DNA from: Alphaproteobacteria bacterium
GTDB taxonomy: Bacteria; Pseudomonadota; Alphaproteobacteria; UBA8366; G965603855
DNA: 64,000 nucleotides
NCBI GenBank assembly: GCA_965603855.1
Contig: OZ272519.1
Location: forward strand, 4,379,781-4,443,780
Direction: 5' to 3'
Shown here: in pieces, positions 4,977 to 8,200 of the stretch
Layout: each line of letters begins with the position of its first letter
Position numbering within the stretch: the stretch's first letter is position 1
Made by a program: the position numbers and the translations under genes
Notes under the pieces: generated by a model
Seen by the model: the letters and a program-made list of their open reading frames with translations, nothing else
The model's database searches: none
What the model was told of the DNA's origin: nothing

Positions 4977-5492
4977 TCAGCGCCGGTCGAACCGGTCGGC
5001 GAGGACCGTCAGGGTCACGACTTTCTTGACGCCGCCGATCCGTTCCAGGGCGTCGCGCACGTGATTGATGGTTTCCAGGGAATCGCCCTCGACATAGACG
5101 ATCATGTCGATCTCGCCACTCAGCGACTGGCTGGTCTTGACCTCCGGAATGCGGGCCACTTCGGGAAGGACCCGTTCGCACAGCGCGCCGCCGAGATACA
5201 ACAGCATGTAGGCGCGCGCGGCGGCCGTCGGGGCAGGTCCGCCAAGCCGGACCGAGTAGCCCGCGATGACGCCCGTTCGCTCCAGCCGGTTGAGGCGCTC
5301 GCGCGTCGCGTTGCGGGACAGCCCGATCGCCTGCGCCAGTGTCGAAACCGGCTCGCGCCCGTTGGCCTGCAGGATACTGACGATCTGGCGGTCGATCCGA
5401 TCCAGGGACCGCAGGGCCGGCGGCGTCTCATCGTTCGTCGGCGGGCTGGCCGGGTTCCTTGAAATCGGCGGGGATCTGCGGTTCGAGGTCAC
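4977..5492 (-). CDS. Lrp/AsnC family transcriptional regulator
   Basis: LDRIDRQIVSILQANGR HTH, 'LNRLERTGVIAGYSV', C-terminal RAM domain. Confidence 0.9.
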   Translation of the reverse strand: MTSNRRSPPISRNPASPPTNDETPPALRSLDRIDRQIVSILQANGREPVSTLAQAIGLSRNATRERLNRLERTGVIAGYSVRLGGPAPTAAARAYMLLYLGGALCERVLPEVARIPEVKTSQSLSGEIDMIVYVEGDSLETINHVRDALERIGGVKKVVTLTVLADRFDRR

Positions 5493-6795
5493 TCTTCCGG
5501 TTCCGGTTCATCCAGGCGTCGACCAGGTATGGAAGGCCGAACAGGGCTGCTGCGCATAATAGCGCCCAACCGAAGACACCGGCAAAGGCGACACAGATCG
5601 CAAAGGCGGCGATGCCGAACAAACGCGCGCCGGGATGCCGCTCGACCTTGATGAATGCGGCAATCGCAAGGACATAGAGAAGAAAGAAGTTCTGTCCCGC
5701 CACCCGCAACAGGTCGGACAGCGTCAGCAATCCGCCGCCGTGCAGGCACAGCACCAGCGCAAACAGAACCGACAGCGCAGCGATCGCCGCACGCGGGGTG
5801 TTGCCGGGACCGGCGACCCGGTGCAGGGCCAAGCCGCGCGGCGCCCATCCGCTGCGCGCGATGTCGAAGATCAGCCGAGAAGCGGCCCACACCGCGCCGT
5901 TCAGGTTGGCGACCACGATGACGACGACAAGGACGGCGACCGCGACGCCCGTCCCCGGCCCGTCCAGCAGCACCCGCTTGAGGATGATCAGAAACGGCGC
6001 GGCCTCCAAGGTCCGGTCGCCGTATTCCACATACGCCTGGACCGCCAGCGCGGTGCCCAGATAAAGCGCCATCACGACGGCGAAGCTGATCGAAACGGCC
6101 AGCGGAAAGTCGCGCCGAGGGTTCTTGAATTCCTCGGTCATGAAGGACAGCATCTCCCAGCCCGTATAGGCGAAGAATGCCAGACCCATGCCGCTCCACA
6201 CGCCGACCCAGGTCGGGTTGCCGACGCTGAAGTCCACGTCCGCCCACCCCGGAACGCAGGCCAGCGCGACCGCGGCCAGGGACAGGACCAGAACCGCCAC
6301 AACGACGTTCTGAATACCGCCGGCGACCCGCGCGCCAAGCCAGGCGGCGCCGATCACAAGACCCAGCAGGATCGCCGCGATCCCGGCCGCCAGCCAGTGT
6401 TCCGGCTCCCGGTCTGTCGCCGACGCGAAACCGCCGGCGGCATATTCCGCGCCGGTCAGGGCAATACCCGGCAGGCCCAGCGAGAACGTTCCCACAAGCA
6501 GGTATGCGCTGCCCGGCCGCAGGCGCGGAAACGCCTGGCCGATGAAGCCGGCAACGCCGCCGGCGTTCGGAAACCGCCGGCCAAGGACCGCGAAGACGAA
6601 CAACAGCGGCAGAACCAGCACGCCGTTGAAAAGCCAGGCATAGACCGCCCAGCCGCCGCTCTGTTGGTAGACCAGTCCGGGCAGCGACAACATGCCGGCA
6701 CCGATGACGATGCCCAAGGCAAGCGATACCGCGCCGTAAAGCCCGATCGTCTTGTTCAGGCCCGTCGCGCCGGCATTGCGCGTCTCGGCAGGCAT
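5428..6795 (-). CDS. APC family amino acid permease
   Basis: TM1 motif IGAGML, FAYTGWE motif, about 12 TM segments; likely ATG at 6795. Confidence 0.9.
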   Translation of the reverse strand: MPAETRNAGATGLNKTIGLYGAVSLALGIVIGAGMLSLPGLVYQQSGGWAVYAWLFNGVLVLPLLFVFAVLGRRFPNAGGVAGFIGQAFPRLRPGSAYLLVGTFSLGLPGIALTGAEYAAGGFASATDREPEHWLAAGIAAILLGLVIGAAWLGARVAGGIQNVVVAVLVLSLAAVALACVPGWADVDFSVGNPTWVGVWSGMGLAFFAYTGWEMLSFMTEEFKNPRRDFPLAVSISFAVVMALYLGTALAVQAYVEYGDRTLEAAPFLIILKRVLLDGPGTGVAVAVLVVVIVVANLNGAVWAASRLIFDIARSGWAPRGLALHRVAGPGNTPRAAIAALSVLFALVLCLHGGGLLTLSDLLRVAGQNFFLLYVLAIAAFIKVERHPGARLFGIAAFAICVAFAGVFGWALLCAAALFGLPYLVDAWMNRNRKSDLEPQIPADFKEPGQPADER

Positions 6796-6805
6796 CAGCG
6801 CCGCT

Positions 6806-8062
6806 CTAGCATGGGACGGCGCCGTCGAAAGGATAGACCTCGTAGACGCACCGGTTCGAAATCGGTGCGGCGCCATGCAGCCGGCCGCGCGGAATGACAA
6901 GACCCTCGCCGTCGGTCAGCCGGACCGACTGGTCGAAGCCGGTCGCCAGGTCCAGCGCGCCGTCCCGAACCACCAGCAATGCGGTCTCGTCCCGAACCTG
7001 GGTGGTCGTGTCCTGGCCGCGCACCGTCTCGACGGTCGCTGCCTGGACCTTGTGCCATTCCTTCAGCGCCCGCTGTGTCGCGTCGCTTGGTTTCAGCCGG
7101 TAGGCGGCGCGCCGATCGGACCAGGTGATCTGTTCCAACAGGTCGGCATCGGCAATCTGCCGCATCAGCCAGTGTTCTTCGAAACCGCGCAGGATCTGGG
7201 GAACGATCCCGGTGCCGATCTCGTCAACAGCCGCCATGATCAGCCGGCGCAGCACGGTTTGTCGGCTGCCAAGGTCGTCGTCTTCCCGCAGCGCGAACTC
7301 GGGCACATAAAGCGCGTCGCCAAAAACCTGGCGCAGCATCGTCGACCATTGGCGCACCGCATGGGCGACGCCCACCTCCATGAAATGGAGCGCGCCCAGG
7401 TGGTGGAAAAGCGACCGCCTTCGGTGCAGCAACAGGCAGAAATGGTTGAACAACGCAAGCGACGAGGCAAGGTAGAGCTCTCTGTGCATGTCGGTATCCG
7501 CGTTCAGACCCACGCTCTCCAGCGTGAACTTGAACGCCGTCCGGTAACCCAGCGGAAGGGTCCCCTGCGCCGTCGACTGCGTCAGCACCGCCCACAGCGC
7601 GCGCTGCACCGGGCCGGCCATCGTGTAGGCGGCACGGGCCGTGTCCGCCGTTTCGCCCAGGTTCTCGCAGGCCCACTGCAGCAGGAACAGTTTCGCCGCC
7701 TCGCGCGGCGCCGCCGCATTCAGGACCGCCGTGCAAACGGCATCGTGCGAAACGGCGGCCGCATCCAGCCGGTCCTCCAGGTGGGACGCAAGCCGGCTTT
7801 TCGACCAGTTTCCCGAAAGATCGACGGCTTCGTCGAGAAAACCGAACGCATGCTCCTCGCACTGGGTGCGCAACAGGCTGCCCACTTGCAGACGATCCTT
7901 CGCGAAAATCGATCCCGCCGGGTCGGCCGCCAGCGGATCGGCACACGATATGGCGTCGCCGAGGCCGGATTCGTTCAAACTGCGCAGGATCCGTTGCGCC
8001 AGCAATGCGCTCGCGCCGGTCGGCGCGCTTGCCTTGATTGCGTCCGTCAATTCCAAACCCAC
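6806..8062 (-). CDS. SznF-like heme-oxygenase-like diiron (HDO) domain + cupin protein with degenerate metal ligands
   Basis: Segments AFGFLDEAVDLSGNW, TLESVGL, YLASSL, LRQVFGD, IVPQILRGFEEH, EQITWSD and GEGLVIPRGRLHGA..CVYEV match the SznF sequence as I recall it; start GTG 8062 (or TTG 8086). Confidence 0.75.
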   Translation of the reverse strand: MGLELTDAIKASAPTGASALLAQRILRSLNESGLGDAISCADPLAADPAGSIFAKDRLQVGSLLRTQCEEHAFGFLDEAVDLSGNWSKSRLASHLEDRLDAAAVSHDAVCTAVLNAAAPREAAKLFLLQWACENLGETADTARAAYTMAGPVQRALWAVLTQSTAQGTLPLGYRTAFKFTLESVGLNADTDMHRELYLASSLALFNHFCLLLHRRRSLFHHLGALHFMEVGVAHAVRQWSTMLRQVFGDALYVPEFALREDDDLGSRQTVLRRLIMAAVDEIGTGIVPQILRGFEEHWLMRQIADADLLEQITWSDRRAAYRLKPSDATQRALKEWHKVQAATVETVRGQDTTTQVRDETALLVVRDGALDLATGFDQSVRLTDGEGLVIPRGRLHGAAPISNRCVYEVYPFDGAVPC

Positions 8063-8200
8063 TGCGTTCCTTGACCGAATGCGCAAGGCCGGAGGATGCA
8101 GATCTGGCCGCTCCGTTTAAATCTGGCAAAATGCACGGTGGATGGTGAAAACGACCAGCGGCGCTCTGACGCCACTGGCGACAGAACGGAGTGTCCGTCG

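Follow-up and report, generated by a model that had tools for sequence, protein, structure and literature searches.

A SznF-family protein without most ligands of both metal centres, under selection beside an amino-acid permease and an Lrp-type regulator

The stretch of DNA analysed here, called the window throughout, comprises 64,000 nucleotides of an Alphaproteobacteria bacterium (assembly GCA_965603855.1, contig OZ272519.1, positions 4,379,781 to 4,443,780 of the forward strand). Near one of its ends, the minus strand encodes three tightly packed genes, for a homolog of the N-nitrosourea synthase SznF, an amino-acid permease and an Lrp/AsnC-family regulator. The first of these, the SznF-like gene, is the subject of this analysis. 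Its product belongs to the SznF family and is doubly dead, being a pseudoenzyme or a repurposed enzyme under selection, and it is found in a single species-level lineage only. The locus is composed as follows:

4977..5492, minus strand: Lrp/AsnC-family regulator, 171 amino acids, overlapping the 3' end of the permease gene by 65 bp
5428..6795, minus strand: APC-superfamily amino-acid permease, 455 amino acids, ATG at 6795 and stop at 5428
6796..6805, minus strand: 10-bp spacer from the stop of the SznF-like gene to the permease ATG at 6795
6806..8086, minus strand: SznF-like gene, 426 amino acids from the TTG at 8086, TAG stop at 6806-6808
8087..8200, no strand: intergenic region between the SznF-like gene and a divergent PEMT-family gene (ATG 8201)

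The reading frames and the distances between them are those that a first-pass annotation of the same DNA had described, and an ATP-grasp gene, which it had also reported as missing, is indeed not present among the immediate operon neighbours. For the SznF-like gene the GTG at 8062, which is preceded by AAGGA and gives 418 amino acids, appears to be a likelier start than the TTG at 8086. The permease matches the Pfam domain AA_permease_2 (E 1e-34) and is closest to the YjeH-type model PRK11021 of NCBIfam, with a score below the cut-off of that model. The regulator contains the two Pfam domains of Lrp/AsnC proteins, the AsnC helix-turn-helix and the ligand-binding domain.

Homology to SznF and the lost metal ligands

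The SznF-like protein consists of a shortened N-terminal domain, a helical bundle of the HDO type and a cupin domain. Compared with the PDB sequences by phmmer it matches SznF (6m9r, 6vzy) with E 2e-53, and its residues 30-419 align to SznF residues 74-463 with about 30% identity over 390 residues and nearly without gaps. Because the offset of this alignment is constant at 44, about 45 N-terminal residues must be missing. An AlphaFold2 model based on a 53-sequence alignment reached a pLDDT of 81.9 and a pTM of 0.85, and its best Foldseek matches are all SznF chains (TM 0.82-0.84, E 1e-25). Three-domain architecture and fold are common to the window protein and SznF/StzF, the N-nitrosourea synthase of Streptomyces achromogenes (PDB 6M9R, 6VZY), whose family forms the N-nitroso group of streptozotocin. 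The score for PF14518 (Haem_oxygenas_2, HDO superfamily) is 27.4 bits with hmmscan and 29.1 bits in a six-frame search, at a gathering threshold of 28.9, while an intact homolog (L003/L004) scores 115 bits.

In SznF the diiron site is formed by E189, E215, H225, E281, H311, D315, and H318 and the cupin site by H407, H409, and H448. Y459 is also essential, and single Ala substitutions at the ligands abolish the respective activities (PMC13133933, PMC11705231). The window protein has retained three of the seven HDO ligands (E189 as E145, E281 as E237, D315 as D271), while the other four are replaced (E215 by S171, H225 by Y181, H311 by R267, H318 by S274). Of the cupin ligands, H407 and H409 read Q363 and R365, and only H448 is retained, as H404; further downstream, Y459 is retained as Y415. 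Thus, all of the six ligands that are missing are individually essential in SznF. At the substrate-anchor positions of auxiliary helix 2, D185 is conservatively replaced by E141, so that an acidic residue remains at the anchor, and A190 and M193 have become T146 and T149. The altered and retained motifs are located as follows:

7562..7585, minus strand: LTQSTAQG (family IDEYGYGV), residues 168-175, with S171 at the E215 position
7538..7549, minus strand: GYRT (family KHST), residues 180-183, with Y181 at the H225 position
7265..7291, minus strand: LREDDDLGS (family EHxHIDxHH), residues 266-274, with R267 at H311, D271 at D315, and S274 at H318
6989..7003, minus strand: TQVRD (cupin motif THxHD), residues 362-366, with Q363 at H407 and R365 at H409
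6869..6883, minus strand: RLHGA, residues 402-406, with the retained third cupin His H448 as H404

The motifs LTQSTAQG, GYRT, LREDDDLGS, TQVRD, and GEGLVIPRGRLHGA are all present in the SznF-like protein. The first-pass annotation, made from the letters alone, had described a full-length homolog that aligns end to end, with about 45 N-terminal residues deleted and with three HDO His, one Glu, and two cupin His lost. The alignment agrees with this in every residue, each altered motif that it quoted is found in the translated frame, and the structural comparison leads to the same protein. Former metal-binding segments have a pLDDT of 50-67 in the model, falling below 50 at residues 173-178, and residues 45-59 are uncertain as well. 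For comparison, the intact protein of L005 was modelled with the same 53 sequences and reached 90.6 overall and 70-81 at the metal-binding segments. The remodelled regions are therefore the least determined parts of the structure.

The SznF family was sampled by an exhaustive phmmer search over 1.84 billion representatives (of about 15 billion proteins), which resulted in 163 relatives, the closest sharing at most 34% identity with the SznF-like protein. The best 150 of these 163 and two proteins from a word-indexed search were combined in an alignment of 152 proteins. Three classes are frequent in it, namely both sites intact, an intact HDO site with a His-less cupin, and a degenerate HDO site with a three-His cupin. 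The window protein is alone among the 152 in lacking most ligands of both sites. In the homologs located on genome contigs (GTDB species genomes), all ten ligands are present in 49 of 52 and the seven HDO ligands in all 52, and none has lost both sites. The pattern of the window protein is thus not a mere matter of chance. With respect to the same substitutions, the word-indexed search gave just two homologs, both intact and about 34% identical, and the scan of metagenome contigs gave none. Because no close relatives turned up, family-level dN/dS and linkage statistics are impossible for the dead form.

The nearest case is P0050 from a metagenome contig (L064 2447-3775), in which R, Q, and G take the place of the HDO ligands H225, E281, and D315 while the cupin is free of His. 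Neighbouring genes encode a luciferase-like monooxygenase and a JmjC protein. We considered it as a second doubly degenerate member, but context and subfamily differ, and it is a partial case. Many other representatives of the family (within P0003-P0152) have kept the seven HDO ligands and have none or one of the cupin His, and are thus the mirror image of ChmM. Unusual frames were noticed in Jeongeupia: the frame of the SznF homolog of J. chitinilytica (L036 6791-10222) has 1144 codons, which may be due to a fusion with downstream genes or to a lost stop, and simple frame extension in J. naejangsanensis (L056 6860-8335) crossed one in-frame stop.

ChmM of the chalkophomycin pathway and its relatives associated with nonribosomal peptide and polyketide synthases have a degenerate HDO domain and work together with a heme N-oxygenase of the YqcI/YcgG type (PMC10849742). 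Like in ChmM, most HDO ligands are lost in the window protein (four of seven) and the scaffold is kept. Unlike the window protein, whose cupin reads Q/R/H, ChmM has kept the three cupin His and is paired with ChmN in a biosynthetic cluster. The genome containing the window, a single contig of 4.98 Mb that is 98% complete, was searched as a whole and does not contain a second SznF homolog, another PF14518 protein, or any match to the YqcI/YcgG N-oxygenases (PF08892). The SznF-like protein is not a half-enzyme of the ChmM type. Another comparison is offered by PstoRohS, a naturally inactive HDO N-oxygenase with an Arg at the last His ligand, in which R225H restores activity (PMC13133933). In the window protein, too, Arg has naturally replaced a His ligand of the diiron site. 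However, a single substitution in a single-domain HDO protein is opposed here by four changed HDO ligands, two changed cupin ligands, and a remodelled second shell. A limited literature search gave no description of a doubly dead SznF homolog. HDO-dead homologs with intact cupin such as ChmM are already known.

Descent from an intact cassette and evolutionary rate

In 44 of 54 genomic loci a small Rieske gene (Pfam Rieske) is found directly downstream of the SznF homolog. The alphaproteobacterial cassette comprises Lrp, SznF, a small Rieske protein of about 110 amino acids, and a YjeH-like APC permease, and it is carried, for example, by Azospirillum cavernae, other Azospirillaceae, several metagenome-assembled genomes, and the contig of P0001. 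SznF, Rieske, and APC permease genes, with or without Lrp, are combined in L005, L010, L012, L034, L045, L053, and L058, and a Dongiaceae locus (L016) has SznF and the APC permease and no match to Rieske or Lrp. Intact cassettes are found at the following positions and also in L034 and L045:

L005, 310-3408
L012, 6279-9901
L058, 6866-10406

Every other member of the cassette has kept all ten ligands as well as D185, A190, M193, and Y459. M193 has been proposed to select the N-methyl group, and it is retained in cassettes that themselves contain neither methyltransferase nor ATP-grasp genes.

The order of the genes in L058 is SznF-Rieske-APC-Lrp, and the window shows the same order minus the Rieske gene. 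The window permease is 55-60% identical to the cassette permeases, including those of L005 and L058, and the window Lrp is 43-59% identical to the cassette regulators, with 53-59% to the Lrp beside the intact SznF of L009. This locus, a 3.1-kb contig (G021:C394), carries the closest intact SznF and the Lrp of highest similarity, and it is titled 'uncultured Flavobacteriales'. The genome search places the genome that holds it in the alphaproteobacterial order of the window, so that a labelling or binning problem may explain the title. Among 60 genomes of this order, orthologs of the permease are mostly found where a SznF homolog occurs as well (G011, G021). In G011 the cassette (L004 6357-12459) is being destroyed by insertion sequence (IS) elements, with transposase genes upstream of a 5'-truncated SznF gene and a permease gene that is split by an IS1595-type transposase. 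G006, which belongs to the same genus, has a permease fragment only and no match to SznF. Because of the co-occurrence of permease and SznF and because of the remnants in G011 and G006, the cassette is a patchily distributed accessory unit, of which the window trio is one descendant.

Compared with an intact cassette, the window copy has the same gene order and orthologous permease and Lrp genes and is short of six ligands, the N-terminus, and the Rieske gene. The latter is absent at the 10-bp junction to the permease gene, and an ortholog was not detected elsewhere in the genome (best match E 1e-3 within a frame of 367 amino acids). The junction is crossed without gaps by a contig (piece 6664-6814 of X7) of a close relative, a population of about 99% identity that is represented in the public reads of four marine-sediment metagenomes. 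Gene order and orthology show that the SznF-like gene descends, at its original position, from the SznF gene of the cassette, and the Rieske gene has been cleanly lost in the window lineage. Compared with the SznF locus, too, the operon has no adjacent Rieske, methyltransferase, or ATP-grasp gene, and adjoins permease and Lrp instead.

Among themselves the SznF proteins of intact cassettes share 42-68% identity, with 53-61% in the nearest group, while the window protein has 29-34% identity to all of them. A comparable deficit is not seen in the permease of the window. In maximum-likelihood trees the terminal branch of the SznF-like protein has a length of 5.4-6.2 substitutions per column at a median of 0.18-0.48, whereas that of the window permease equals the median with 0.57. 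In the other cassettes both proteins are similar in branch length. The SznF-like protein thus has a branch that is about ten times longer than that of the permease with which it was inherited.

At 122 columns with at least 90% conservation the window protein has retained 53% of the residues, compared to 83-100% in the 52 homologs. Retention is highest in the cupin with 75%, followed by the N-terminal domain with 59% and the HDO domain with 48%, and the losses in the HDO domain concentrate in the motifs surrounding the diiron site, mostly in the first and second shell. It could have been possible that the losses were aimed at the ligands specifically, which we rejected: four of the ten ligands are retained, and so are 24 of the 54 columns (44%) that are invariant in the 52 others. 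Ala, Arg, Thr, and Leu have increased in the SznF-like protein and Tyr, Phe, Ile, Asn, and Lys have decreased, and this shift exceeds that of homologs from genomes of equal GC richness. Composition and losses together indicate a past period of relaxed constraint under GC pressure.

Present selection and possible functions

The sediment relative covers positions 6893-8086 of the SznF-like gene. The 11 listed differences comprise ten synonymous changes, of which nine are at third positions and one is at the first position of a Leu codon, and a single non-synonymous change (A62T). There are no indels. With 309 synonymous and 885 non-synonymous sites, these differences correspond to a pN/pS of about 0.035, and the chance of finding at most one non-synonymous among 11 differences under neutrality is about 1e-5 (binomial). 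The covered positions include all six changed ligand codons, and none of these differs in the relative. Synonymous to non-synonymous differences are 11:5 in the neighbouring HlyD gene and 11:9 in the permease gene, compared to 10:1 here. In the alignment with the L005 protein, 373 residues form one ungapped run, and indels are not more common than between intact homologs. Given the indel rates of bacterial pseudogenes, such a scarcity is hard to square with hundreds of neutral substitutions. From the 10:1 differences and the missing indels it follows that the SznF-like protein is under purifying selection now. The first-pass annotation would have been overturned by a decaying pseudogene whose dN/dS approaches 1; with its intact frame and low pN/pS the gene is not such a case.

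In addition, we simulated neutral evolution that starts with the consensus of the family and ends at the retention seen in the window protein, which takes about 335-364 substitutions. Under a GC-rich equilibrium 7-14% of the runs stayed free of stops, and at an equilibrium of 66% GC none of 300 did. The open frame had been a candidate for evidence of selection, but it was rejected as weak because 7-14% of the neutral runs also remain stop-free, and a frame of 440 amino acids is open on the opposite strand as well. The G+C content at second codon positions (GC2) is 0.47, like in the neighbours, while neutral decay under the GC-rich equilibrium predicts 0.56-0.59. The replacements have a mean BLOSUM62 score of -0.49 and are thus milder than in the neutral simulation (-0.88 +/- 0.2).

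Because both iron sites and the Rieske partner have been lost, yet selection persists, a different job beside the amino-acid transporter is probable. We favour, with moderate confidence, the interpretation that a former N-nitrosating enzyme went through a phase of relaxed evolution and is now a conserved non-oxygenase protein, which would probably act as ligand-binding partner of the transporter and the regulator. The redox chemistry would have disappeared with the Rieske gene, the first 45 or so codons, the ligands, and the second shell. A near-neutral burst of change would then have been followed by renewed constraint, with fold, frame, and operon spacing preserved. Neither the diiron N-oxygenase activity nor the N-N bond formation by the Fe-cupin should be possible any longer, and a metal-free or differently metallated protein of SznF fold would work with the permease and Lrp. 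The most plausible mechanism would be non-catalytic binding of an arginine-like amino acid, which could modulate the permease, in export or import, or the response of Lrp. A metal-free ligand binder is favoured because the E141 anchor, E145, H404, and Y415 are retained, because new Arg residues are found at or near the ligands, and because a His-to-Arg change inactivates RohS. The new arginines R182, R267, and R365 may fill the former metal sites by packing against the carboxylates that remain. The importance of the anchor position is illustrated by the D185L variant of SznF, which is almost 4000 times slower (PMC7848743).

Several points weigh against this interpretation. The binding role is one that we infer, and the substrate determinants M193 and A190 have both changed to Thr. 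New His and acidic residues (H234, E263, E268-D270) could form a new metal site. The replacements look mutation-driven, which fits relaxation better than directed adaptation. The test of selection rests on 11 differences from short metagenome contigs, with a few differences near the contig ends unlisted, although pN/pS would rise only to about 0.17 and still be significant if four non-synonymous changes were added. Expression data were not found, and none of the sequencing runs could be recognised as RNA (the kind of X1-X4 is not recorded). Word-indexed, phmmer, and metagenome-contig searches did not reveal any further lineage of intermediate divergence that shares the substitutions, and the family-level pattern of constraint, and hence the functional surface, is unreadable for this reason. 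That the dead protein is known from one species-level lineage is the main limit of the analysis.

The best-surviving alternative is new chemistry, in which the HDO cavity or the cupin would catalyse another reaction on an amino acid that the permease handles, either independent of metal or with a new site. Candidates for such a site would be E145, E237, and D271 together with H234, E263, E268-D270, and Y181. It is consistent with strong purifying selection over the whole protein, with the tight operon linkage to the transporter, with the retention of three acidic ligands and one cupin His, and with the cluster that newly acquired His and acidic residues form on the helices carrying the ligands. 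However, the Rieske redox partner has been lost, and the replacements are biased to GC-rich codons and scattered across conserved positions instead of showing a focused redesign. Model confidence is lowest at exactly the former metal segments, and there is no family of such proteins that would signal an established activity. We regard new chemistry as rather unlikely, although it deserves to be kept in mind.

Considerably less probable still is a more specific form of the binding role, in which the protein would be a metal-free receptor for an N-oxygenated or N-nitroso derivative of arginine, the type of product that the intact cassettes of neighbouring bacteria would make. Together with the permease and Lrp it would constitute a module for sensing, uptake, or detoxification, and if this were true an enzyme would have turned into the detector of its own former product.

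It is also hard to imagine that the gene is a non-functional relic, that is a decaying frame which stays open accidentally, owing to GC-rich DNA, or which serves solely to couple its translation to that of the permease. A very long branch with half of the conserved residues gone, the drift to GC-rich codons, the 5' truncation and loss of the Rieske gene, and the ongoing destruction of the equivalent cassette in G011 would be expected of a relic. A stop-free frame is not rare in the GC-rich simulation (P 0.07-0.14), and the opposite-strand frame demonstrates how easily frames stay open here. However, a 10:1 ratio that is more extreme than those of the neighbours would not result from coupling alone, which does not protect amino-acid identity, and neither a frameshift nor an excess of indels is found despite hundreds of substitutions. 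The undrifted GC2 and the mild replacements also speak against decay, and we give this explanation little credit.

A regulatory or structural subunit of an active SznF-type enzyme encoded elsewhere, which would be in line with SznF dimerising through its N-terminal domain (PMC7848743) and with dead paralogs often being partners of live ones, is extremely improbable and only conceivable with a plasmid-borne partner missing from the assembly, because the genome encodes no second SznF homolog, other PF14518 protein, or YqcI/YcgG oxygenase with which the protein could be a silent partner, and because the N-terminal dimerisation domain is itself shortened. The interpretation of the first-pass annotation thus holds for the homology, the destruction of both metal centres, and the intact frame, but not for the partner subunit that it had offered as one option, for which a Rieske ortholog is missing from the genome as well.

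Interest in SznF-type enzymes has come from their formation of N-N bonds and from their use as models of labile diiron cofactors. That a natural copy is constrained at the amino-acid level without its iron sites and its presumed electron donor suggests that selection can act on a function of the scaffold which does not depend on oxygen chemistry. The window protein could be used as an apo-like SznF fold in structural work, and it provides a test case for the origin of pseudoenzymes through loss of a partner gene, a relaxed burst, and renewed constraint. Once the product of the intact Lrp-SznF-Rieske-permease cassette is identified, it would probably also reveal the ligand of the dead copy.

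Flanking genes and minor observations

On one side the operon is flanked by genes for a MacB-type ABC permease and HlyD, and on the other side by the divergent gene for a PEMT-family membrane methyltransferase and by genes for AmtB, GlnK, and an AsmA-like protein. These flanking genes are unrelated to the operon. The operon presumably has its promoter within 8087..8200, where a scan did not find a sigma-70-like consensus site; the sole match of the scan is inside the permease gene.

The SznF-like gene has the lowest G+C content at third codon positions (0.80) and the lowest share of C at fourfold degenerate sites (0.33, compared to 0.46 in the pooled neighbours) of the nine genes tabulated. 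Seven of its ten synonymous differences, six at third bases and one at the first base of the Leu codon, show A or T (plus strand) in the window and G or C in the sediment relative. These findings point to weak selection on codon usage or to low expression. Searching the reads for a sister species of 80-85% likeness gave mostly short spurious pieces besides one 260-bp metagenome contig from run X8. This contig is collinear with 6918-7164 at about 80-85% identity, contains 91 unalignable bases in its middle, and may belong to a more distant relative of the dead SznF gene. In the permease gene (5428-6795), three adjacent changes distinguish the sediment relative at 5457-5459, within the overlap with the Lrp gene. 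In the intergenic region between the SznF-like and PEMT genes, 11 of the 21 bases at 8163-8183 are replaced in this relative while the flanking coding DNA is nearly unchanged, and the replaced block could be a regulatory difference between the window strain and the sediment relative.

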